Source: a virus (taxonomy: Duplodnaviria > Heunggongvirae > Uroviricota > Caudoviricetes). Taken from it: 40,216 nt of DNA. Positions within the stretch are counted from its first letter, which is position 1; the number at the start of each line of letters is the position of its first letter. Made by a program: the position numbers and the translations under genes. The stretch is taken from IMG/VR virus record IMGVR_UViG_2579779009_000004. One strand, given 5' to 3'. Of this stretch, positions 1 through 28,007 are shown piece after piece. Under the pieces are notes generated by a model. It did not search any database. It was not told the DNA's origin and saw only the letters and a list, made by a program, of their open reading frames with translations.

Positions 1-1284
1 TTACAGACTTCTGGAAGGTTGCACAGCTCTTACAACACGCGGTTGATCTTCCGCAGCGTCTTCCAGCGCACTTAAATCACGGTCTTTCACTTCTGGCATT
101 TTCAGCGCAGAGATTAAACCAATCACTGAATATGCCATGATCATAATGGCGATCGGATACCAGGATTCCGTCATGGTGCAGAAAATACCCGCCAGGATAG
201 GACCAAAACCGGAAGCGATAAGACCACCAATTTCTTTAGAAATGGCCATCCGGGTAAAGCGGTTTTTACAGCCGAACATTTCTGCCATGGTAATGTTTTC
301 CAGAGCAAATAATCCCAGCACCGCACAGTTATGAATCACAATCAGTGCAACCATAATGGTGCTCGGGGCATAGCTTTTATCTACAATGATAGAAAGCATT
401 GGCCATGCCAGCACAATCGCGGAGGTATTCATAATAATATACGGGATCCGGCGACCAATTTTATCGGATAACCAACCAAGGAACGGAATGGTCATAAAGC
501 CGAGAATCGAACTAATCATCAATGCATCTGTTGGAATTGCTTTGTTAAACAATAACGTCTGCACTAAATAGCCTGCAAGGAAAGTCTGAATTAACCCGGA
601 GTTACCCGCCTGACCAAAACGCAGCCCTGTTGCCAGCCAGAAGGATTTGCTCTGGAACATGCTACCAGCAGGTGCAGGTTTTGCTGTGGGTTGGTTGCTG
701 TCATTAACCTTCTCAAAGACCGGGCTTTCTTTCAGATTCATACGTAACCAGATAGCAAAGACCATCACGACAACGCTCGCCAGGAACGGTATACGCCATC
801 CCCACGCCAGCAGTTCCTCTTTACTGAGAATGAAGAACATAAAGGCCCAGATTGCCGTTGCGCTCAAGGTTCCGCAGTTAGTTCCCATAGCTACAAATGA
901 GGAGATAATTCCGCGCTTACCTTTTGGTGCATATTCCGCCAGCATCGTACCGGCACCGGAAATTTCCGCACCTGCACCCAACCCCTGAATAATACGCAGC
1001 GTCACCAGCAAGATGGGGGCAAAAACACCAATCTGTGCATAGGTCGGTAACACACCAATTAAGGTGGTACAGATCCCCATCATGGTGATGGTAATAAAGA
1101 GCACTTTTTTACGCCCTATTCTGTCGCCCATTTTGCCGAAAATAAATGCTCCGACAATACGCGCCACATAACCTGCACCGTAGGTTCCCATTGCCAAAAT
1201 TAACGCCATTGCCGTTGATGATTCAGGAAAAAATATTTCATGAAACACTAACGCTGCGCCGAGCGAATATAACTGGAAATCCAT
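1..1284 (-). CDS. ydfJ: MFS metabolite:H+ symporter-family transporter, 3' portion of ydfJ; N-terminus appears truncated by the prophage insertion
   Basis: 427-aa ORF with multi-pass membrane character and the MFS motif GKMGDRIGRKK; the ATG at 1282-1284 is preceded two codons upstream by an in-frame stop. Compared with recalled ProP/KgtP paralogues the protein begins about 35 residues into the family (at the WFDF-equivalent position). Confidence 0.8.
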   Translation of the reverse strand: MDFQLYSLGAALVFHEIFFPESSTAMALILAMGTYGAGYVARIVGAFIFGKMGDRIGRKKVLFITITMMGICTTLIGVLPTYAQIGVFAPILLVTLRIIQGLGAGAEISGAGTMLAEYAPKGKRGIISSFVAMGTNCGTLSATAIWAFMFFILSKEELLAWGWRIPFLASVVVMVFAIWLRMNLKESPVFEKVNDSNQPTAKPAPAGSMFQSKSFWLATGLRFGQAGNSGLIQTFLAGYLVQTLLFNKAIPTDALMISSILGFMTIPFLGWLSDKIGRRIPYIIMNTSAIVLAWPMLSIIVDKSYAPSTIMVALIVIHNCAVLGLFALENITMAEMFGCKNRFTRMAISKEIGGLIASGFGPILAGIFCTMTESWYPIAIMIMAYSVIGLISALKMPEVKDRDLSALEDAAEDQPRVVRAVQPSRSL

Positions 1285-1888
1285 AATTCACAGGTGTTTT
1301 TTCCCATCCTGTGGTTTCCTTGGCGTTTTCTAGGTTTTTTCAGATAGTTGCATTTTTTAAAAAGCATCCTAAGTTCGATCTCAGTGTCTATCTGGGGCCT
1401 ATTTCTGTCCCATATATGCCCCAAAAAAAACTCCCCAACAGATAAGTAGTTTTTTCATGGATTTATGCGTAAAATCAAGAACGGCTGGAAATCATTCAAT
1501 ACTCACACTATCGAAAAATTTACCAGCCAACCGCAGCACGTTCTTGCATAAGGCGTGTCTGCGGTTTTTCAACTATTCAGATACATCACTCCCATCACAT
1601 TCATTCCTCCGCATCAAAGGCATATAGGCTATATCACCTTGATATTTTTCTTTTTCAGATAAAAACTGTTATCTATGTATACTTTTAAACCCAATCCGTG
1701 TAGAGTCTCTGCATAAGATAGTTTGCAGTTGCCGCTTCAGCTTGCGCCATAAACCGCCTGATTTTTGCTGCCACCTGTTAGCATTCCTGTATACCTGAAA
1801 CGACAATGTTTATCTACGAACTTTAAGAACACCCAAGATAAAAATTGTCAACTATATCATATATAACACATTACTAATTCGAGGCTAT

Positions 1889-2002
1889 ATGAACAGCATA
1901 CTGATAATCACATCTCTCCTTATCATATTCAGCATTTTTAGTCATGCCCTAATAAAATTAGGGATTGGCATATCCAATAACCCAGACAAAACCGATGTAT
2001 AA
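1889..2002 (+). CDS. candidate small hydrophobic peptide (37 aa, [37 protein letters not shown])
   Basis: ATG at 1889 with GAGG four nt upstream, TAA at 2000-2002; single predicted transmembrane helix. Below the ORF-track size cutoff, no homology known to me. Confidence 0.25.
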
Positions 2003-2070
2003 GTCAACATATCCTGAATCAGACATACAATATCGCAATGAAAATCAATAATATTTTAAGGAATATCTTC

Positions 2071-2304
2071 ATGAAATCAAAAGACACCCTAAAGTGGTTC
2101 CCTGCGCAGCTTCCTGAAGTAAGAATTATCCTAGGGGATGCTGTAGTGGAAGTAGCAAAACAGGGAAGACCTATCAATACCAGAACATTGCTTGATTACA
2201 TTGAAGGAAACATAAAGAAAAAATCATGGCTGGATAACAAAGAATTATTACAAACAGCGATATCAGTTCTTAAAGACAACCAAAATTTAAATGGTAAAAT
2301 GTAA
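2071..2304 (+). CDS. ydfK: YdfK/YnaE-family small prophage protein (cold-shock-associated)
   Basis: ORF 2038..2304; internal start MKSKDTLKWFPAQLPEVRIILG gives 77 aa with AAGGA about 8 nt upstream; matches my recollection of K-12 YdfK and sits next to pinQ as in Qin. Confidence 0.75.
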   Translation: MKSKDTLKWFPAQLPEVRIILGDAVVEVAKQGRPINTRTLLDYIEGNIKKKSWLDNKELLQTAISVLKDNQNLNGKM

Positions 2305-2620
2305 TATAATAAACTTACTTTTTTATCATTTTTCCACTTTAACAACATTTTACTCCACTTTTCCACGACCAAACAACTTGAAATCTGGTTAAAATAACAC
2401 GCAACACTATTCTTCTTCCTTGAGTCCGCCCGGAACTCGAAAAACAAACCGAGTTAAAGCCATTTTTCACAAAATCGATTTTGGGTCTCACCAAAGTTAC
2501 GGGGTTGCATACGCATTCGTTTATTTTCGAACGTGTACATACAAATATGCACAAAAATAATCAAAATTATTTTCTGAGATGCATTATGATATGAACACCA
2601 ATTTCGTATAGAGTCTCACT

Positions 2621-3211
2621 ATGTCTCGAATTTTTGCTTACTGTCGGATATCAACGCTGGATCAGACCACCGAAAATCAACGCCGGGAAATCGAAAGTGC
2701 AGGTTTTAAAATCAAACCTCAGCAAATAATCGAAGAACACATTAGCGGCTCAGCAGCAACCAGTGAGCGTCCTGGTTTTAACCGGTTGCTTGCTCGCCTG
2801 AAATGTGGTGATCAATTGATTGTGACAAAACTGGATCGCCTTGGTTGTAATGCAATGGATATCAGGAAAACAGTGGAACAACTGACCGAAACAGGTATCA
2901 GAGTGCATTGCTTAGCATTGGGGGGCATTGACCTGACCAGTCCAACAGGAAAAATGATGATGCACGTAATTTCAGCAGTCGCTGAATTTGAACGAGACCT
3001 TTTACTTGAACGCACTCATTCCGGGATAGTAAGAGCCCGCGGCGCAGGGAAACGTTTTGGTCGACCACCTGTGTTAAATGAAGAACAGAAACAGGTGGTA
3101 TTCGAACGAATTAAGTCAGGTGTAAGTATAAGTGCCATTGCCCGGGAATTCAAAACCTCGCGGCAAACCATTTTAAGAGCCAAAGCAAAACTTCAGACAC
3201 CTGACATATAA
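2621..3211 (+). CDS. pinQ: serine site-specific DNA invertase of the Pin/Gin/Hin/Cin family
   Basis: 196 aa; N-terminal catalytic motif YCRISTLDQ, resolvase core and C-terminal HTH ([19 protein letters not shown]); adjacent to the tail-fibre genes as in Qin/Rac/e14. Confidence 0.95.
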
Positions 3212-3308
3212 AAAATAATCTCGGTGTGAGATGCTTTACGTCTTCCAAGCCCCCTTCCTTGCCGTAAATGGAAAGATACATCTAATTATAGAATTTATAT
3301 GTTTTACC

Positions 3309-3884
3309 CTACGGCAGTGCTGGCCATTCAATATCCTGTGCAGTTGACGTATCAACACGGTTCAGCAACACCCGATACTTTTTCCAGGCTTCCAGCAATG
3401 AGGTTTCTTCCTCCGTTGCGATTTCCAGATCTACAGCATCCTGAAGTGGCGCAATATGCTCACTGGCTACCTGCATCAGGCTGTTTTTTGTTTCTTCCGC
3501 CTCTCGGATCCGGAACAGTTTTTCTGCTTCTGCATCTTTCACCCAGGCTGTGCCGTTCCACTTCTGAAACTCCCCTTCCGGCGATAACCAGGTAACATTT
3601 TCCGGTAACGGACCGAGTTCAGAAATAAACAACGCGTCCCCTGACGCTACGTCATAAACCGTTTTACCCCGATGGTCTTCATCGAGATGCCACGATGCCT
3701 TATCACTGTTGAAAACAGCCACAAAGCCAGCAGGAATATCTGGTGGTGCAATATCGGTACTGTTTGCTGGCAGACCTGTATGAGGCGGAATATATGCGTC
3801 ACCTTCACCAATAAATTCATTAGTTCCGGCCAGCAGATTATAAATTTTTATGGTCCGTGGTTGTTCACTCATTCTGAATGCCAT
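3309..3884 (-). CDS. tfa: tail fibre assembly protein (Tfa)
   Basis: 191-aa ORF immediately downstream of stf; the stf stop and tfa start overlap (TAATG at 3882-3886); typical Tfa size and position. Confidence 0.85.
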
Positions 3885-6800
3885 TATGCAAGCCTCACAA
3901 TATAGTTAAATGCGATGTTTTTGACGGTGTTTTCCGCGTTACCAGCAGCGTTAACGGTGATGGTGTGTCCATGTGAACCAATCGCAACGGAGTGCGTATG
4001 AGCACCAATACCGACAGTATGCGCGTGTGCACCTGCAGATGCTGCTGTGCCGGACAGTGAATGGCTATGATTACCATCTGTACTGGTATTCGCTAACCAC
4101 CCCGTAGACATACCTACTGAGCCTTGTACACCCCAGGTATTTTGACCTGAGCTTGTATAACCATATTGATAAGTATCTTTAAAAACACTGGGGTTAAATC
4201 GACGGCCATCTCTATGGCTGTGATTACCAGCTGCATTCGTGCTGCCACTTAAACTATGGGTATGCGCACCAGTGTTATTCGTGGATTTAGTGCCGTAATC
4301 AAACGACGATGTGGTTTTCGTCCCCAAATCCGTACTGGATGCGCTGGCGCTGTGGGTATGCGATTTAATGCCATCCTGTTCCTGAGACAATACGGCACGA
4401 CCACTGGCGGGCTTGCCCTTAATCGTCCAGCCACGCAAATCAGGGATCACGCCTGACGGATAAGCGGCAGCAAGTTTCGGGTAGGCAGATTTGTCAAAAG
4501 TCTGCCCCTGCATCAGGGCATAACCAGACGGAACGGTATCTGATGGCCACGGGATTGGTGCGCCGACTGGGTAGCTTTCTGGTGGAAGATTTTTCGAGGT
4601 ATAAACTTCTGCCCAGTCTTCCTCAAAACCATAGCCATCTCTTGAAGAACGGTAGAACAGACCACCATTTCTGTAATGCGCCTTCATCTGCAGGGTCCGG
4701 CAACTTCCGACTCCGGTATAGAAGTTAACCAGAATATAGCTGTCGCCAGAGCGGGTGACATTGTAAGCGCCTGATTCGGCATTCCAGGGAACGCCACCAT
4801 CCGCATCGGCATATGTATCCGTTGCCCTTCTGGCAAAAGCAGCCACATGCGCGGCGGTTAAAGTAATATCTTTGGAACCATCAAACTCAACACCAGAAAC
4901 CCGTCTTGGCGTTTGCAGCTTTGTTGCTGTTAATGCATTACCGTTCAGACTTGCGGACAGTTTGGTTCCAATAACCAGTTCGCCGGTTGCGTTATCAATA
5001 GCAAACGGTCTTAATGTATTCCAGCCACCATAAACATCACCTTGATTGGTAAGCAGCAGGTAAGTTTTAGCGCCATCATTACGCCATAATGCCCCATACT
5101 CCCCACCTATCATTCGAATCTGATTACCACCACGCGCTACAATTTCGTCTGTGGCAAAAAGTTTTTTGCACGACAAGTTATCGTTAACGATTAACGAATG
5201 AGACTCATAAAAACCACGCCCACTCTTAAAATCAAGGATAACGTCCGCCGCGATACATTCAGTCGCCGGATTTGTTGCCCCAAACTTATAGGTCGTATCA
5301 TTAACAACGAGATCAGCACCAGGTGCGGATATTGACAGGCCATCTTCGATAAACGCAAAAACAGGGAAAGCAGCGCCATCAACATAGAACACAGAGCGCA
5401 AATCATCGCCCTTATTACTCATCATTATTGAGTGGATGGCTCGTTCATTGTTTTGATATTGCCAGAACATTCCATAAGCATAACGCCCCCTGTCAGTCCA
5501 GCCACCAGGCATAACAAATCCGTTAAACTCGCAGTTATTCATCGGATCGCCTGCGGTTCGCGTTGCCGTGGTGATAATGACCCTTGATGCCAGTTCGCTT
5601 ACTGAGCCAGCAGAACGCATAACAACAACAGGGTAATATTTTCCAGATATTGCACCTGCAGGAGCGTTAACCCGCACATAACGCATACCACGCTTATCAG
5701 CAAAGTCTGTTTTACTGACCGCGTTAATGTTGTTCAGGAAGCGTCCCTTATCGGGTATATCAGCGCCGTTCTGGTCTTTCTGCAGACGTTTCTCTGCATT
5801 GTCATAGGCTGATTTTACTGCCTTTGGCGTTGCCGCCAGCGTTTCAGACGAACTGTTGGTCGCACTGCTGAGCTGTACTATCCCCTTTTTCGTCGTACTT
5901 GCATCCTCAAGCGCCACGGCGGATGCAATATCCTCTGCCCGTTTAGCTGCTGTCTCGGCGCGCGTTGCTGCGGATTCTGCCGTATTCTTGCTCTGTGCTG
6001 CCGCCGTCGCACTGCCAGCAGCCTCTGTTGCCTTCGTGGATGCCGTCGTGGCGCTGCCTTTCGCTGCTGATGCCTGTCTGGTCGCCTCATCTTTTGAAGC
6101 AGACGCCGATGAGGCCGATGACGCCGCCGAACTGGCGGACGATGCGGCAGCCGTTTTTGAGGATTCTGCGCTGGTTTCCGACGCTTTCGCGTTCGTTTCG
6201 GATGTCTTCGCTGCGGAAGCTGACCTCGCTGCTGCGTTGGCCTGTTCAGTGGCTTCGCCAGCCTTCGTTGTGGCTGTTGAAGCAGACGATGCGGCACTTT
6301 CTGCCGATTTTCCGGCGGCGGTGGCACTGGCTGAGGCCTGCCCGGCACTTGTTGACGCGGTACTGGCAGACGACGCAGCCGCTGTTTTTGAGCCTGCCGC
6401 AGCTGAGGCGCTCTGTCCCGCTGCCGTCTCAGAAGACCTGGCGTTCGTCTCGGACGTTTTTGCCGCCTTCGCGGAATTTCCTGCCGCCGTTGCCGAGGAA
6501 GCTGCGCTACTGGCGCTCGAGGATGCGTTCGTTTCTGATGATTTCGCTGCCTCTTTTGAGGCCGCCGCATCCCGGGCTGAGGTGGCAGCTTCTGACGCTT
6601 TCGTGGTCGCGGTGGATGCAGAAGTGGCTGCTGATTGTTGTGACGCTGCGGCATTCGTTTCTGACGTTTTCGCCGCACCGGCACTGGTAGCCGCCGCGCT
6701 TTTTGAGGACTCTGCAGCGGCAGCACTTTTTGATGCTTCAGTAGCCTTTGTTGATGCCGTTCCTGCGCTGGAAGACGCTGACTGAGCCGACGTCGCGGCC

Positions 6801-7282
6801 TGCCCGGCTGATGTGCTGGCTGCACGTGCTGAGCCTGCAGCATCAGTCGCATGGGTTGCCGCCTCACGGGCTGATGTGCCGGCATCGCTGGCTGACTTCT
6901 TCGCGGCTGCCGTGTTCTGTGCCACCGCGGACGCGTTACGCGCCACCTCTTCCACCATCAGCTCAAAACGGCGCAGTGCCTCCGGACGGGCATCATCCTC
7001 CGTCATGGCACCGAGAAAATCATTCAGCGTACCGGGTCGGGAATCTTCATACACGGTGATGGTCCCGGCATGTGACGGCGGGAATCCTTCCACCAACAGA
7101 ATAACGCTGTACTGACCGTACTCAACGTCCATGCTGTAACGCCCGGCTTCATCCGGATTTTCTGAGGCCAGCGTGTTCACCACCACCGTGGTGCTGTTAC
7201 GTTTTGCTTTCAGCTGGATTGTGCAGTTCTGTACCGGTTTTCCTGTGCCGTCTTTCAGTACACCTGAAATCTTTACTGCCAT
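3884..7282 (-). CDS. stf: side tail fibre protein (Stf), long Rac-StfR-like form
   Basis: N-terminus [26 protein letters not shown] matches lambda Stf; long Ala/Ser/Thr-rich central region; C-terminal His-rich repeats ending ...[19 protein letters not shown] typical of Stf. The ORF-track start at 7288 is a GTG; the first ATG is at 7282. Confidence 0.9.
5860..6890 (-). repeat. low-complexity repetitive coding region (Ala/Ser/Thr-rich segment of Stf)
   Basis: About 1 kb with all six reading frames nearly stop-free (three long overlapping ORFs on both strands in the ORF track); reiterated GCN/TCN/ACN codons. Confidence 0.8.
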
Positions 7283-7293
7283 ATTCACCCCAC

Positions 7294-7319
7294 AAAAAAG
7301 CCCGCCTGAACCGGCGGGC
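7294..7319 (-). terminator. rho-independent terminator downstream of lom
   Basis: Perfect 7-bp stem gcccgcc/ggcgggc (7300-7306 and 7313-7319) with 6-nt loop, followed on the minus strand by a U-run (plus-strand A-run 7294-7299). Confidence 0.6.
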
Positions 7320-7346
7320 TGTCATAACACTGTGTTACCTGGCTAA

Positions 7347-7946
7347 TCAGAACTTATAACCGACACCCACGATGAAACCGTCAGTGCGCCAGTCGCCACT
7401 GCCGGAGCCTTCATAAGCAATATCAATGGCCACGGATTCGGTCGGGTTAAACTGCACGCCAGCTCCCCACGCCAGAGACGTGTTGCTGTGGCGACCGTCA
7501 TCACTTCCGGTCAGCACGTCGTGCGTTTTCCCCTTGTTGTCAGTTACGCGGAGATAATCCCCGGAGAAAGTCGACACACGGCTGTAAGCCATACCCGCCA
7601 TCGCATACGCGCTGAACCATTCATTCACGCGCACAGACGGCCCCGCCATCACGCTGAACCAGCGGTTACGCACGGAATCTTCATGCCAGCGGGTATCGCT
7701 GTAACGGGTAAGCTGGCGATTCTTGTCTCCTGCATAGCTGAATGACGTCACCAGCCCCAGTGTGTCCGTAAACTCATAACGGTATTTCACGTTAATCCCG
7801 TTAAGATCATCGCTGCCGGGAACGTTCGTCGAGGCATGAAGATAGCCCGCGCTCAGCGTGGACTGATGTTCAGATGCCCATGCAGGCGCACCGGATACGG
7901 ACAGACAGATGGCTGCGGACAAAATGGCTGCACAAACTTTACGCAT
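7347..7946 (-). CDS. lom: Lom-like outer membrane protein (Ail/PagC/OmpX family)
   Basis: 199 aa; signal peptide [24 protein letters not shown]; C-terminus ...[26 protein letters not shown] as I recall for lambda Lom; located between J and stf as in lambda. Confidence 0.9.
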
Positions 7947-7969
7947 AATTACCTCTCGCTTTTCTGCAA

Positions 7970-7994
7970 TAAAAAAGGCGCCATTTCTGGCGCC
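7970..7994 (-). terminator. rho-independent terminator between J and lom
   Basis: Hairpin ggcgcc-atttct-ggcgcc (7977-7994) followed on the minus strand by a U-run (plus A-run 7970-7976); GAGAGG Shine-Dalgarno for lom follows. Confidence 0.5.
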
Positions 7995-8013
7995 CGTATA
8001 TGGGTTATAAAAT

Positions 8014-11000
8014 TCAGCTGATACTGATGCCTGCGGTGGCTTTCTTCATCACCACAACCAGCAAATCGCTGATACTTGCTGTGGGATACCAGTCATTTAC
8101 CAGCCATGCTGACACCGAAAACTCCAGCGTCATGTGACCGTGACCGGCAGGCATATCAATAACGCCACTGTAAATCAGCGTATTATCCAGCGCGGTACGG
8201 TTATAAATTTCAGCACCGTTTTTCCGCACTATCAGACGGCATGAGGAGTAAATATCAGTATGCTCTCTCTCATGTTTAGCGCCGCTGAATGCCACCGCAG
8301 GAATAACAATCTGCCGGTCAAACGGCTGATCGTCATAAACCCTGACGGTAATGGTCCCTGATGGCCACCGTTCCGGTGCACGGGAGTCCCGGGGGAAAGC
8401 TTTGCCCACTGTTTTAACGAGATCGCCTTCAATCTGGTTCGCGGACAGTTTTCCCAGAACCCGACAGTTCTCGTTAATCGTGACGTTGTTGAGCGTCCCG
8501 GAGTTCGCATTCACGTTACCGCTGATATCGGCATTTTTCGCCGTCAGCCGCCCGTCCGGTGTCAGGGAAAATGCCGGAGGATTACCGCCGCTGGTAATGG
8601 TCGGAGCCGTCAGGCGTTTCAGGAACACGTCGTTCATGAATATCTGATCGCCCTGACCAACAAACATTGGTCTTGTGTTGCCATTAGACGGATCAATAAA
8701 CGCGATACGGTTAGCGGCAACCAGGAACTGGCTCAGTTTGCCTTCCTCCGTGTCCTCCATGCTGAGGCCAATACCCGCGACATAATGTTTGCCGTCTTTG
8801 GTCTGCTCAATTTTGACGCCCCACATGGCATTCCACTTATCACTGGCGTCCTTCCACTCTTTCGAAAACTCCTCCAGTTTGCTGGCGTTATCCTCCGTCA
8901 GCTCGACTTTTTCCAGCAGCTCCTTGCCAAGATGGGATTCGGTTATCTGGCCTTTGAAAAAATCCAGGTAACCTTCCGCATCATCGCTCGCCCGACCAAC
9001 AGCCTCCACGAATGCCGATTTGCCAACGGTGTTCACACTGCGAACGTAAAAATAATAATCATGGCCCGGCCTGATATTGATACTGGCAGCTATCCAGTAC
9101 AGCGCCGTGCCAAGATAGCGGGCTGTGGTTTCAACCTGCCTGATATCCGCAATCCGTTTTTCCGAGAACCAGAACTCAAACTGTACCGTCGGGTCATAAA
9201 CCGCAAGATGTGGCGTGGCGGTTATCTGAAAATAGCCCGGTGTCAGCTCAATCCGAGACGGCGCTGCCGGTGCGGCAATCCGGAACGATACCGATGCCGG
9301 ATCGCCCTGCAGCCCCCACGCATTTACCGCCCGGACCGTCAGCATGTAACGCCCCAGCGCCAGTTGCGTGAAGCGGTATGTGGTTTCCGTCGTCCGGGCC
9401 GTGCTGACCAGCCGCTCACTGCCGTCATCCGCTGCCACGGTCAGGCGAAGCAGGAAGCTCACGCCCTTCACCACTTTCGGCGTGTCCCAGCGGGCCAGCA
9501 CCTGATATTCCCCGCTGTCTGCGGTGACTTCGGCAGTCAGGTGCTGCACCGCTGGCGGCGTGACACCATTCACCGTGCCGCTCTGGTCGCCGTCAAAGTG
9601 CGCCCCGTTATCCACGATGGCCTCTTTCTCCGGTACATGCTGCACGGCAGTGATGGCATACGTGCCGTCGTCGTTCTCACGGATACTCACGCAGCGGAAC
9701 AGGCGCTGGCGCAACGTCGGCAACTTCAGCCCCCACACGCTGTATTCAGCAACGCCGTCAGGAACACGGCTCACTTTCACCTTCACGCCGTCGGTGACGG
9801 ACTGGACCTCCACGCTGACCGGATTACCCTCACCGTCAACCAGGCTTATCAGCGTGGTGCCGGAGGATGGCAGCGTGATTTCACGGTCGAGCGTCAGCGT
9901 CCGGGTCTGGCTGTTCACCGCCAGCACGCGACCACCGATGCTGATACCGGCATAGTCATCATCGCAGATTTCAATAACATCGCCCGGCACATGGCGAAGC
10001 CCTTCTGCGCCCACGCTGAAATCCACGGTCTGCGTTTCCAGCAGTTCCGTTTTAATCAGCCACAGCCCGGCTCGGTGTGCCTGCCCCCGACTGGTACAAC
10101 CAAAGGCATCCATCTTCGTGACATTACGACCGTAACGGGCAATGGCCTGCGTATCTTCAACAAGCTCTGTCGCCGTCTCCCAGCCGTTGTTCGGGTCAAT
10201 CCAGTTCACCTCAACGGCATTATGGCGGTCCTTCAGGGCGCTGAAGCTGTAGCGGAACGGCGCGCCATCATCCGGCATCACCACATTACTGCGGTTATAG
10301 GTCCACACCTTATCCGACTGTCGGTCCTGCACGAACGTCAGCGTCTGCCCGTTCCATACCGGCATACAGCGCATCGCCGAGCAGAAATCACTGAGCACAT
10401 CCCACGCCTTGCGCTGTGTGGTCAGGTAAGCGTTACAGGTGATGCGCGGCTCCGTGCCGCCAAAGCCGTCCGGCACCGACTGGTCGCAATTCTGGCCGAT
10501 GACATACAGCGCCCATTTATCCACATCCGCCGCACCAAGACGTTTCCCCATGCCGTAGCGCGGATGGGTCAGCATATCCCACAGACACCAGGCCATGTTG
10601 TTGCTGTATGCCGGTTTTAACGTTCCGTCCCAGATACCGCTGTATTGCCGCGTCTGCGGGTTATAGTTCGACGGCACCTGCAGAATGCGCCCGCGAAGAT
10701 GATAATTACGGCTCACCTGCTGGCTGCCGAACTGCTCCGAGTCCACCTGCACGCCAACCAGTGCCGTGTTCGGGTAGCACTGTTTCACATCGATGATTTC
10801 GGTGTATGACGACCAGAGCGTTTTGTTCTGCAGCTGGTCTGTGGTGCTGTCCGGCGTCATCCTGCGCATCCGGATATTAAACGGGCGCGGCGGCAGGTTA
10901 CCCACCACCACCGAGGCCAGATACTGCGAGGTGGTTTTGCCCTTAATGGTGATGTCTTTTTCCGTCACCCAGCCACCGTTACGCTGTATCTGAACCAGCA

Positions 11001-11409
11001 GGCGGACTTCCGATGGATTCCTGTCCCCCTTTGAGGTGGTTTCCACCAGTGCCTGCACACCGAAGGTAAAGCGCAGACGGTCGATGTTTGCCGACGTGAT
11101 GGTGCGGGTGATCGGCGTGTCATATTTCACTTCCGTACCCAGCACCGTCTCGGAGCCGGAGGATTCAAATCCCTCCGGCGGTGTCTGCTCCTGCTCACCT
11201 GCCCGGAACACCACCGTGACACCGGAGATATTGGTATTCCCCTCACTGTCCAGCACTGGCGTACTGTTCAGCAGCACGCTTTTTAATCCATCCACCGGAC
11301 CTTCAATCGGCCCTTCGCTGATGGCATCGATCACACTCAGCAACTGCGTGGACTTCAGGTTGTCCTTCGCTTCGCGCGGAGTATGCCCCTTACTGCTGCC
11401 TTTACCCAT
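8014..11409 (-). CDS. J: tail tip host-specificity protein J (central tail fibre)
   Basis: Begins [38 protein letters not shown]... and is near-identical to my recollection of lambda gpJ over about 980 aa, then diverges in the last roughly 150 aa. The ORF-track N-terminal extension (MKPPPGG...) is rejected. Confidence 0.95.
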
Positions 11410-11469
11410 TCCTAACGCTCCATAAACGACAAAACCGCCCGGAGGCGGTTTCACATAAAACGTTTTTCA

Positions 11470-12117
11470 TCAGCGACCAATCACTACAACCTGACCACCA
11501 TCCCCTTCGTCTGCCGTGCTGATCTCCTGAGAGACCACCCGCGACCCCACGCGCATTTCACCGTACAGAACGGGCAGAACATTGCCCTGGGCAACCATGT
11601 TATCCAGTGAGGAGAAATAGGTGTTCTGTTTGCCGTTATCTGTACTTGCTGCCGTGGGCGTCCTGGCTTTCGGTGCCAGCATCTGCGCCACTCCGCCCAG
11701 GATCATACTGGCCCCTGCCGCATACATGCCCGATACAGCCGCGGCACCCAGCCAGCCCACAGGGTTCCACCATGCCACCGCAATCAGCGCCGCCCCCAGC
11801 ACCACCTGAAACACACCGCCACTTTTAGCTCCCGCCAGACGCGGCACGATGTGGATCACGGCACCATTTGCCAGCGGCTCATTAAGACGGGCAGACAATT
11901 CGGTTTCACCTGCATCACGCCCGGCAATGCGTACCTGGTACCAGCCGTCGCTCAGTTTCTGACGAAACGCCGGGATCTGCATGGCCAGCGCCCGGATGGC
12001 TTCGGACCCCGTTTTCACTCGAAGGTCGATGCGGCGGCCAAATCGTTGTAAATCCCCGTAAAGGCAGATGCGTGCCATGCCCGGTGACGCCAGAGGGAGT
12101 GTGTGCGTCGCTGCCAT
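11470..12117 (-). CDS. I: tail assembly protein I
   Basis: 215 aa; C-terminus ...NMVAQGNVLPVLYGEMRVGSRVVSQEISTADEGDGGQVVVIGR as recalled for lambda gpI; overlaps K as in lambda. Confidence 0.85.
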   Translation of the reverse strand: MAATHTLPLASPGMARICLYGDLQRFGRRIDLRVKTGSEAIRALAMQIPAFRQKLSDGWYQVRIAGRDAGETELSARLNEPLANGAVIHIVPRLAGAKSGGVFQVVLGAALIAVAWWNPVGWLGAAAVSGMYAAGASMILGGVAQMLAPKARTPTAASTDNGKQNTYFSSLDNMVAQGNVLPVLYGEMRVGSRVVSQEISTADEGDGGQVVVIGR

Positions 12118-13800: not shown

Positions 13801-16800
13801 TACCGATATGCTCCACTTAACCGACCACCATCACGGGCCTGCTGTTGCATAAAGTCCGCTGCCGCTTTTTTCCCGAGGTCATAAACCGCCTTCAGGGCAG
13901 CCGGACCTATCTGCCCGTTCGTGCCATCGTTATTGATCTCGATGTTGTACTGCGGGGCAAACATCGCCATACCTGAACCACCAATATCCGCCACAACCCC
14001 CAGCTTACCGTCAGCACCACGACGCAGTGGCAGAATGGCTTCAGGTCCCGCTTCCCCCATCACACCCGCGCCTTTTGCAAAAGCAAAAAACGTCGGACGG
14101 TTAACCACCGTGCCACTGTAACGACTCAAATCAGCAGACTGATAAATCCCCCCATTGGCATTCAGGGAAAGGCTGCTGAGATCAAATCCCAGTACACTGC
14201 CAATCCCTTTTATCGATTTCATCATGGTTGCCTGCGCCAGGATTTTCGCCATATCTGACAGCACAGAAGAGGTGAAGGATTTGAAATTGAGTTTGCCGGT
14301 AGTGACAAAAGTTGCCAGGCCATTTCCCATGTTGCTGAAGGCTGACGAGAACACCTGTTCTGCTGTTCCTGCCGTATTATCTGCATCCACGGTAAAATTC
14401 TGAAATGCACGCAGGACTCCGTTTTTCCAGTTACCCTGCACAACTTCAAGCTGTTGCCAGTAACGGCGATTCTCATTCAGTTGTCGGTTCAGGCTCTCCG
14501 TCAGCGCCTGCTCGGCCTTTCTGTAGTCATCCGTGTTATATGTTCCTTTCTGCTCACTATCCCGCCTCAACTGCTCCAGCTGTTGCTGGTATTTCTGGCG
14601 AAGACTCAGTTGTACCTGATATCGCTGCCGCTGCTGATCACCCATACCCACCGTGGCGATATCCAGGTCATGTTGCTGACGCTGAGCGCGCTCTTCTTCA
14701 GCCAGTTGACTGGTCAGCTGAATTGTTTTTTTCTTCAGCTCGTTGAGTGCCGTCTGTTTCTGAAGCTCCTGCTGTTTTACATCCAGCAGCGTCAGTGCCT
14801 GAATCAGTTCATCTTTACGGGCCAGCACACTCTTTTCATCTGCCGTCAGTTTTTTCCCGTCCAGGTCGCTGATGCGCTGCTGCAGAGCCAGAAGCTGTTT
14901 ATGCGCTTCTGTCATCCTTTCCGTGGCAATGCCTGCTGACTGTCTGGCAGCAGCAATCTGTCCTTCCACCTGTGCCTGTTGCTGACTGTACTGCAGCAAT
15001 AACCGGGTGGCCTCATCATTACGGGGTTCGCGTGTTTTTTTCTTACCGGATGCCAGGGCTTTCTCGTAACGTTCATTTTCACGTTGTATCGCCGCATCCC
15101 TGACAGCCTGATCGGCGTACTGCATGGAATTAATACGCGCAATTTCACGCTGATGTCGTGCTGCTTCCGTTTCATTCATCCGGTTCAGTGCAGCATTTTC
15201 AGCATTACGGCGTTTCTGTTGCTCCTGATAATTCTGCTCTGCCTGCTCTTTTGCATCCTGCAAATCCTTCTGGCGTTTTTTCTCCTGAAGCTCGTTAAGA
15301 CGCTGCTGATCGTACTCAACCTGAGAAGATGATGCCGTCCAGGGGAGTCTTTTCGCCCGCGACACTTTCTCCTGTAAAGCGGAAATCTGTTCATCCAGCG
15401 AGTCTTCACGACCAATATTCATGGCCGCATCCCAGAAACGACTCCATAAATCAGACAGATACTTCAGCGTACTGCCCAGCGCATTGAGGTTATTATCAAT
15501 ATCCGCAGTACGCCGACCGGTTTCCTCTGCCAGTGCAGACATGGCTATCCGTGCCGCATCACTGGACCGCCCCTGTTCCCCAAGGACGCGTATCTGCTCA
15601 AGCTGAGTGGCAGTAAGAAAATGCAGCTCATTGTCCAGAGCCTTCGCGGCATTTACAGGATCATCCTTCAGCCGCTTAAACTGATTTATGGTATCGCTGA
15701 CCGACTGGCCAACCGATCGCTCCATCTGTGCGGCAGCTCTCGCCACCATACCGATATCGTTTCCACGAAATGCACCACTCCCCACCACCTGAGCCAGCGC
15801 ACCGGCTGCAGCATGTTGCGTGATACCATTCCCGGAAATAGCACGACTGAGCGTCCACAGCTGCCCGGCAGTGACTCCGGCATAATGCCCCGTCAGCGAC
15901 AACTGGCGGTTAAATTCTTCCCCCTCCTTCTGACCATCATACCAGGCTTTACCCAGACCATAGACGGCCGCGGCAATACCGCCAATAACCCCGCCCAGCA
16001 TCATGCCTTTCGGTGACATCAGTGTGTCTATCCATCCGGCACGGTTAGCCAGCGTTATCCCGGATCCCCTCAGCGCACCTAAATTGCCGCGAGCCAGTTC
16101 AACTATCAGAACGCCTATCTCCTGGCGGGCCGCTGCACTTTTCAGACCCAGCGAATGCGTGGCTTTTCCTGCCTGCTCCATTTTGCGGATATACACTTCT
16201 GCAGCACTGCTTACCCCCAGCTGGGCAGCCTTAGCACGAAGCAACTCAGAAGAAGAAAGATTCTGGCGGGTTGCCTGCTCTTTAAGCTGACGGATAAACG
16301 CCACTTTCTGTCGGGTAGCCTCTTCCTCAGCCTGTGTAAGAACACGGGTTTTCGCAGTAACCTCAGAAATCAGCGCCAGATAATCCTGCTGACCAATCCC
16401 GCCACTGTTTCTGGCCTGTCGGATCTGCTGCTGAATACGCTGTAATTCCTGCAGCCCCGCACTGGCCTGTTTCACACTGTCAATCTGACGATAAAACGCA
16501 GCAGCCGCTTTATCCTGAGCCTCCGCCAGAGCCATGGCCTGCGCCTGTTCCTCGCGCATTTTCTGGCTCAGTGCCTCCATGCGCTGGCGGGTTTTCTCCA
16601 CCTCGCGGGCCATGCGTTCATGAGCCTGTGCGTTCTTCTCCACCGTCTGCGCATGGACGGATGCGGCTGTTGCAGCCGAAGAAGCTGCCTGCGTTGTCTG
16701 CCGGGCGGCCTGAGTCTGACGCTCCATAAAACGCTGCATACGGGCAGAAGACCGTTCTGCATCGCTGGCTGCACCATTCAGAAGGTTTTTGATACGGGGA

Positions 16801-27856: not shown

Positions 27857-28007
27857 ACCATAACGTCCGGCTTCTCTCACTCCTGAGCCGGACTGCATTG
27901 GTTTAATAAAAACCATCAACAATTGTGATTTAGATATTCGGAACCATTCAAATATAACAAAACCCCGTAAAAACGAGGTTTATGGATAAATTTTATTATT
28001 GAATACA

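Follow-up and report, generated by a model that had tools for sequence, protein, structure and literature searches.

The pinQ gene beside the tail-fibre genes of a Qin-like prophage: probably an orphaned Tn3-family resolvase rather than a tail-fibre invertase

Introduction

Does a serine recombinase gene that lies beside the tail-fibre genes of a prophage necessarily belong to a host-range switch? The question is raised by a 40,216-nucleotide stretch of viral DNA (Caudoviricetes; IMG/VR record IMGVR_UViG_2579779009_000004), referred to here in its full length as the window, in which the recombinase gene pinQ adjoins a side tail-fibre gene (stf) and a tail-fibre assembly gene (tfa). Gin of phage Mu, Cin of P1, Hin of Salmonella and PinE of e14 are, like PinQ, small serine recombinases with a C-terminal helix-turn-helix, and they are likewise encoded beside prophage tail-fibre genes. 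The original prediction for this locus, made from the sequence alone, had labelled pinQ a Pin-family invertase and the locus an apparently orphan or fixed inversion system. The gene itself (pinQ and pinR of Escherichia coli K-12) and the absence of an adjacent invertible segment were already known. Here we compare the protein, its upstream DNA and its surroundings with those of its relatives, and conclude that pinQ is probably a tnpR-type resolvase gene that was captured from a Tn3-family transposon and orphaned, not a tail-fibre invertase.

The features at the centre of the analysis, from open reading frames (ORFs), Pfam and, for tfa and stf, tblastn, are:

2621–3211, plus strand: pinQ, 196 amino acids, Resolvase and HTH_7 domains
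3212–3308: intergenic gap from the pinQ stop to the tfa stop, 97 bp, convergent stops
3309–3884, minus strand: tfa (tfaQ), Caudo_TAP domain, the sole tail-fibre assembly gene in the window
3884–7288, minus strand: stf, 1134 amino acids, full-length side tail fibre, one copy

Results

PinQ groups with Tn3-family resolvases

PinQ matched the Pfam families Resolvase (PF00239; E = 3.6e-36) and HTH_7 (PF02796; E = 3.8e-11), a fold that it has in common with the Tn3-family TnpR proteins; NCBIfam yielded sub-threshold matches only (Mpi invertase, XisF) and was uninformative. The raw score of PinQ is higher with Gin (109 bits) than with γδ resolvase (82 bits). Whereas PinE and Gin share 78% identity, PinQ is only 40% identical to PinE and 37% identical to Gin, which places it by sequence outside the Gin/Cin/Hin/PinE clade. 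Its closer relatives, of which the protein database holds thousands at 58–84% identity, many of them plasmid-borne, are TnpR resolvases, and the label of Pin-family invertase is misleading. The recognition helix of PinQ, SRQTILR, is also of the resolvase relatives' type, unlike the STLY[K/R] of Gin and PinE.

Sequences resembling pinQ were found on 1,761 PLSDB plasmids, with DNA similarity reaching approximately 60–80 bp upstream of the start codon. The nearest relative that bears Arg at position 76, the position taken up below, lies on the IncF plasmid pAMSC2 (locus L005) and is 84% identical to PinQ at the amino acid level. Eighty relative loci were fetched from species-representative genomes. 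An upstream ORF of about 980–1060 amino acids, the size of a Tn3 transposase, was present in roughly 15–18 of the 80 loci, and the divergent upstream neighbour was a Tn3 transposase in eight of the nine cases tested (Pfam: DDE_Tnp_Tn3, DUF4158). One tnpA-res-tnpR junction was at least 99% identical across 334 plasmids. By gene order, many of the relatives display the classical tnpA ← res → tnpR organisation, and the sequence relationships as a whole place the descent of pinQ within the Tn3-family resolvase (TnpR) clade.

The upstream res array is intact in the relatives and decayed in the window

In an alignment with the relatives (A3), the 120 bp upstream of the relatives' genes contained a position-conserved array of half-sites of the form TGT[A/C]CGAAA. 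There are six, at approximately −115>, −97<, −75>, −51<, −33< and −20< from the start codon. Site I is a near-perfect dyad of 26 bp, TGTCCGAAACCG-(GT/AC)-CGGTTTCGTACA, at about −115 to −90, and differs in this length from site I of Tn3 res, which is 28 bp. Site II is the dyad TGTCCGAAA-N14-TTTCG[G/T]ACA at about −75 to −44, and site III consists of the two half-sites near −33 and −20, which overlap a TATAAT box. Every locus had a single half-site cluster, located immediately 5′ of the gene, and no further cluster was found within 8 kb on either side in any relative locus. A single res per replicon is what marks a resolvase, whereas an invertase requires a pair of sites in cis, and the array in the relatives probably functions as a res site. 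A full-text literature search for the half-site strings returned primer noise only.

The 110 bp upstream of pinQ in the window (array at 2508–2610) could be aligned column by column with the res of the relatives in A3:

2508–2533, plus strand: decayed res site I (crossover dyad), CATACGCATTCG-TT-TATTTTCGAACG
2548–2579, plus strand: decayed res site II, TGCACAAAA-N14-TTTCTGAGA
2586–2610, plus strand: decayed res site III, half-site remnants ATATGAACA and TTTCGTATA

In all six half-sites, positions invariant across the clade had changed, and the scores were 5–10 bits, compared to 11–19 bits in the relatives. At site I, the remnant half-sites scored at most 5.4 bits versus 16–19 bits in the relatives; the best-preserved remnant is TTTCGTATA in site III, at 9–10 bits. 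The site III remnant overlaps the probable −10 box of pinQ, TATGAT at 2585–2590 (TATAAT in the relatives). In the pAMSC2 relative, site I is intact and the promoter-proximal sequence is nearly identical to that of the window. No res-type half-site or dyad above chance was found anywhere in the window: the best-scoring dyad was the site II remnant itself, at 8.7 bits, compared to a chance maximum of 10.3 ± 3.4 bits and 30–37 bits for real dyads. Neither a tnpA remnant nor homology with the relatives further upstream than about −110 was found in the window. As aligned, then, the res upstream of pinQ has decayed. A co-evolved new half-site specificity was also considered, and was rejected: on inspection no new consensus united the six remnants, and PinQ has kept the recognition helix of its Arg-bearing relatives.

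A catalytic arginine is replaced by cysteine in the phage lineage

The second departure from a working resolvase lies in the protein:

2846–2848, plus strand: codon 76, TGT (Cys), at the position of R71 of Tn3/γδ resolvase, motif LDRLG[R->C]

The codon is TGT in the window versus CGT in the pAMSC2 relative, a difference of one transition. Cys76 was present in all eight phage-type loci, in K-12 PinQ and in a diverged phage-type allele that also adjoins tfa (L087), as well as in the large database clusters P0001, P0002, P0004, P0009 and P0088. By comparison, all 71 loci outside the phage clade with a readable motif had Arg at this position. Among 120 listed database proteins, 112 had Arg, five had the phage-type Cys and three had alterations of the LDRLG motif itself. 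Judged by this distribution, the Arg-to-Cys change is fixed in the phage lineage.

The catalytic set of Tn3 resolvase (Y6, R8, S10, D36, R68 and R71) is incomplete in PinQ. The equivalents Y7, R9, S11 and R73 are present, D36 is replaced by Glu39 throughout the clade, and R71 is replaced by Cys76 in the phage lineage only. R71 is one of the six residues that are essential for catalysis in Tn3 resolvase; in the R71A and R71K mutants recombination was undetectable and strand cleavage was about 1000-fold slower (PMC2794168).

Selective constraint on the protein is relaxed as well. Between two diverged Cys-bearing phage alleles, the ratio of nonsynonymous to synonymous substitution rates (dN/dS) was 0.38 (dS 0.22); in 25 pairs of Arg-bearing relatives of comparable dS it had a median of 0.07 and never exceeded 0.15. 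At positions conserved among the enterobacterial relatives, the stem of the phage lineage carried 11 derived changes, including R76C, and its two tips a further 5 and 12, giving totals of 16–23 for the phage lineages versus 2 in the plasmid sister. These figures indicate a constraint on PinQ that is approximately five-fold relaxed but not gone, and a faster evolution of the phage lineage.

No tail-fibre inversion system is present in the window

The original prediction had also stated that the locus has one stf and one tfa without an alternative cassette. Searches of the whole 40-kb window by tblastn with Tfa and with the N- and C-termini of Stf confirmed this: no second copy of either gene was found, and the next best E-value after the genes themselves was 0.58 or worse. 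The tail-fibre module is thus of the ordinary lambda-like fixed type, with one stf and one tfa.

Crossover sites were sought in several ways. With up to two mismatches, the string AAACCNNGGTTT matched 16 times compared to 19.9 expected, and none of the matches fell in 2300–7300. A crossover matrix combined the hix half-sites with the gix and pix half-sites as they occur in Mu and e14. The matrix scored the true sites in Mu and e14 at 28–31 bits. The best site in the whole window reached 10.9 bits, within the chance maximum of 11.7 ± 2.3 bits, and the best site in 1300–7600 reached 8.5 bits. An inverted-repeat search returned gix (41 nt, 93%) in Mu and pix (21 nt, 95%) in e14 as the top matches, and only noise-level arms, 70–89% complementary, in 1300–12000 of the window. 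The search for dyads and inverted repeats in 2300–7300 that had been proposed for this locus was thus carried out with gix and pix recovered as controls, and no crossover pair flanking stf/tfa was found; the earlier failure to see a gix- or hix-like site by eye was borne out.

The interval of less than 100 bp that had been noted between the tfa and pinQ stop codons measures 97 bp (3212–3308), and contained neither a crossover-like site nor a terminator-like hairpin. The gene pinQ converges on tfa, and its 5′ end faces away from the tail-fibre module. In Mu and e14, by contrast, the invertase gene is co-directional with the tail-fibre gene, and a crossover site lies about 55–65 bp upstream of the invertase start. 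What characterises the Gin, Cin, Hin and PinE systems, namely 26-bp crossover sites, an invertible segment and dual cassettes, is missing from the window. Nowhere in its 40 kb is there a cis substrate, whether of the invertase or of the res type, and the view of the recombinase as an orphan with respect to its neighbours holds, with no cassette, no crossover site and no inverted repeat above noise.

The lambdoid phage mEpX1, which has a true Gin-type invertase, served as a further positive control: an 18-bit gix-like site was detected within its tail-fibre gene. The two sites of this phage (L088), at 4402–4427 and 5901–5926, are this gix-like site and one that is half-degenerate and precedes the invertase gene by about 65 bp. 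The segment of about 1.5 kb between them appears to hold one coding orientation only, and the phage has one annotated tail-fibre gene. The top gix-like 26-mer of the window, CCCGTAAAAACGAGGTTTATGGATAA at 27964–27989 (better half 9.1 bits; total at the chance level given above), is kept in K-12 Qin between ydfO and gnsB (L089, 7566–7591).

The prophage and its counterparts

The surroundings of the module comprise the following genes (lom and J from ORFs and Pfam):

1–1284, minus strand: ydfJ, a chromosomal gene for an MFS transporter, marking the prophage end
2071–2304, plus strand: ydfK, cold-shock protein, upstream of pinQ and co-directional with it
7347–7946, minus strand: lom
8014–11454, minus strand: J

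The genes ydfK and pinQ share one cargo region between tfa and the prophage end. Stf has the Pfam domains phage_tail_N, Gp34_trimer and Collar. Its middle part is Ala/Ser-rich and repetitive, which accounts for long spurious ORFs of 309, 335 and 241 amino acids on the opposite strand or in other frames at 5856–6900; these are not genes.

Positions 1–4080 of the window, from ydfJ through ydfK, pinQ and tfaQ into the 3′ part of stfQ, are 98.4% identical to K-12 MG1655, and on this basis the window corresponds, in intact form, to the right end of the cryptic K-12 prophage Qin. The pinQ of the window is the same gene in the same place as K-12 pinQ (b1545), which shares with it both Cys76 and the decayed upstream region; PinR is the counterpart in Rac, and every PinQ/PinR-type sequence seen has the Cys. 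K-12 Qin differs in that only the 3′ part of stf is left (stfQ), fused next to nohA, where the window keeps a full-length stf, lom and J.

Several strains, E. coli ATCC 25922 among them, match positions 1300–7600 of the window at 100% identity, and 980 records hold at least 80% of this 6.3-kb region collinear and in a single place. For positions 1–2000, strain ABW_A19 (NZ_CP067307.1) is 100% identical, and ATCC 25922 was not among the best 25 matches. Across phage records, PinQ identity falls from at least 98.5% in E. coli lambdoid phages to 61% in one Erwinia phage, and then to less than 45%. PinQ was present at 98.5% or more in eleven phage records, always as a single copy. Active phages with the PinQ layout include 2H10, mEp460, Tritos, Turner and Kati; in 2H10, the order is J-lom-stf-tfa, followed by a convergent pin, a ydfK-like gene, dinI and int, with a single cassette as in the window.

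Further observations among the relatives

The database proteins P0003 and P0005–P0008 are chimeras with an N-terminal part of the plasmid (Arg) type and a C-terminal part of the PinQ type, with varying breakpoints. They suggest that plasmid tnpR and prophage pinQ genes have recombined with each other. P0008 sits on an E. coli chromosome of 5.4 Mb; some of the cases on short contigs could be assembly chimeras.

In some genomes two resolvase genes of the PinQ clade lie close together. The pair in L045 (1280–2649) is divergent, with a doubled half-site array in common. In L052 (3378–3947 and 8889–9449) they are in direct orientation about 5.5 kb apart, and could bracket an excisable segment. L019 has paired genes at 8001–8576 and 14773–15096.

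The 61% relative in Erwinia phage LS-2018a (L004, 7880–8606) keeps Arg and has an intact array that uses a variant half-site, TGTACTAAA, so that site and protein may have co-varied in this lineage. Neither a tail-fibre link nor inverted repeats were found in its context.

Discussion

In the reading we favour, the cargo region of a prophage, between tfa and the attachment site, would have captured a Tn3-family tnpR. Its ancestral substrate would have been the three-subsite res directly upstream, which in the relatives lies between divergent tnpA and tnpR. The tnpA gene has been lost, all six half-sites have decayed, and the R71 equivalent is Cys across the phage lineage. Compared to the tnpA-res-tnpR module of Tn3 and γδ, the window has no tnpA, decayed half-sites and Cys in place of the catalytic Arg. 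Because the clade, the orientation and the upstream res homology are all of the non-invertase kind, pinQ was probably never part of a tail-fibre switch. On this evidence, PinQ would perform no recombination on this prophage, and would at best be a very weak recombinase.

Several points weigh against such a reading. The effect of Cys76 on PinQ is extrapolated from Tn3 resolvase, and the res function of the relatives' array is drawn by analogy with Tn3/γδ. The dN/dS of 0.38 is significantly below 1 (binomial test versus neutrality, p = 0.001), and thousands of genomes, as well as active phages, carry a full-length pinQ. With this residual constraint and retention, the gene is not in pure decay, and a residual, possibly non-catalytic, function is conceivable. 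The most direct challenge comes from Kirigo et al. (2025), who characterised K-12 PinQ and reported that, with PinQ overproduced, the inverted fraction of the e14 P segment rises from 30% to 88% and the cells are protected from phage T2, which would imply a recombinase that is active in trans (PMC12529663). The P segment is 1797 bp long, and its inversion yields a chimeric StfE2 that blocks T2 adsorption (PMC12529663). The same study reported that PinQ does not invert its adjoining DNA, and that a BLAST survey of E. coli genomes found no inversions in Qin or rac (PMC12529663). This absence of Qin/rac inversions and of adjacent inversion agrees with the orphan status of pinQ.

Taken at face value, those results would make PinQ an active invertase in trans, acting on the pix-flanked P segment of an e14-like element elsewhere to produce a chimeric Stf that blocks T2. 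Besides the 88% inversion, T2 survivors carry the inversion, and deletion of stfP, stfE or e14 abolishes the PinQ effect (PMC12529663). The PinQ of the window differs from that of K-12 at only three residues, and pinE-like (Gin-family) sequences are common: E. coli genomes contain about 1.8 extra matching places each, counted per record with a chimeric query (window 1–2000 plus pixR-pinE) versus baseline, and ABW_A19, identical to the window over 1–2000, has two. However, the P segment is locked in a pinE single mutant in which pinQ and pinR are intact, and 88% exceeds the equilibrium of about 50% that PinE gives, which suggests selection or bias rather than simple catalysis; a catalytically dead PinQ control is not mentioned (PMC12529663). 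PinQ has Cys at the R71-equivalent position, pix sites score approximately 0 bits with the PinQ-clade half-site matrix versus 30–37 bits for cognate dyads, and the recognition helix is of the resolvase type described above rather than that of Gin and PinE. Classical genetics by van de Putte and Plasterk in 1984 reportedly mapped the gin-complementing activity of K-12 to e14 alone. The sequence evidence thus sits uneasily with direct catalysis by PinQ on the P segment, and we consider such activity in trans unlikely. It is nevertheless the one form in which the earlier suggestion that the invertase may act on sites that had not been recognised still stands, namely as action outside the window, of the kind reported for K-12 PinQ on e14 (PMC12529663).

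Action in cis would require sites in or near the locus so diverged that neither matrix recognises them. Recognition was indeed deduced from the relatives, so that specificity could have shifted, and the two diverged phage alleles have kept the upstream remnant, with about five differences in 164 bp. However, the six remnant half-sites have no new consensus in common (by inspection), the recognition helix is the same as in the Arg-bearing relatives, no inverted or direct repeat pair rose above noise, the 980 records are collinear in one piece over the 6.3-kb region, and Qin/rac inversions were not found across E. coli genomes (PMC12529663). We regard cis action on diverged sites as very unlikely. 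The notion of a fixed system, a relic of a Mu/P1/e14-type invertible segment that has lost its second cassette and crossover sites by deletion, fares worse still. A small serine recombinase does adjoin stf/tfa, and lambdoid phages with real Gin-type invertases do exist, as in mEpX1, where the invertase gene adjoins a tail-fibre gene that contains the 18-bit gix-like site. However, PinQ falls outside the invertase clade, the convergent orientation is opposite to that in Mu and e14, the homology of the upstream DNA is to transposon res and not to a crossover site, and no trace of a second tfa or stf was found. Moreover, all 11 phage records with PinQ at 98.5% or more are single-copy, and 2H10, too, has a single cassette. 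A fixed inversion system is thus hardly credible here.

Returning to pinQ as a captured resolvase gene, its residual purifying selection and its persistence in active phages suggest a vestigial role or one other than catalysis, for example DNA binding. It is a tentative and rather doubtful extension of this idea that lambdoid phages keep a res-less, attenuated resolvase derivative for a non-canonical role under residual purifying selection. PinQ could be a modulator that binds DNA and thereby biases or licenses the action of other serine recombinases, for example PinE on the e14 P segment; if true, this would account for both the dependence on PinE and the skew beyond 50% in K-12. Another possibility is interference with the res sites of the Tn3-family transposons that are very common on enterobacterial plasmids.

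What the present analysis adds is that “Pin” is a misnomer for this gene, which is of Tn3-family resolvase lineage, with a decayed res of its own and with Cys in place of a catalytic arginine. The result is of direct relevance to the 2025 claim that PinQ is an active invertase driving an anti-phage switch in trans. It also advises caution more generally: a small serine recombinase encoded near tail-fibre genes need not be a host-range invertase.

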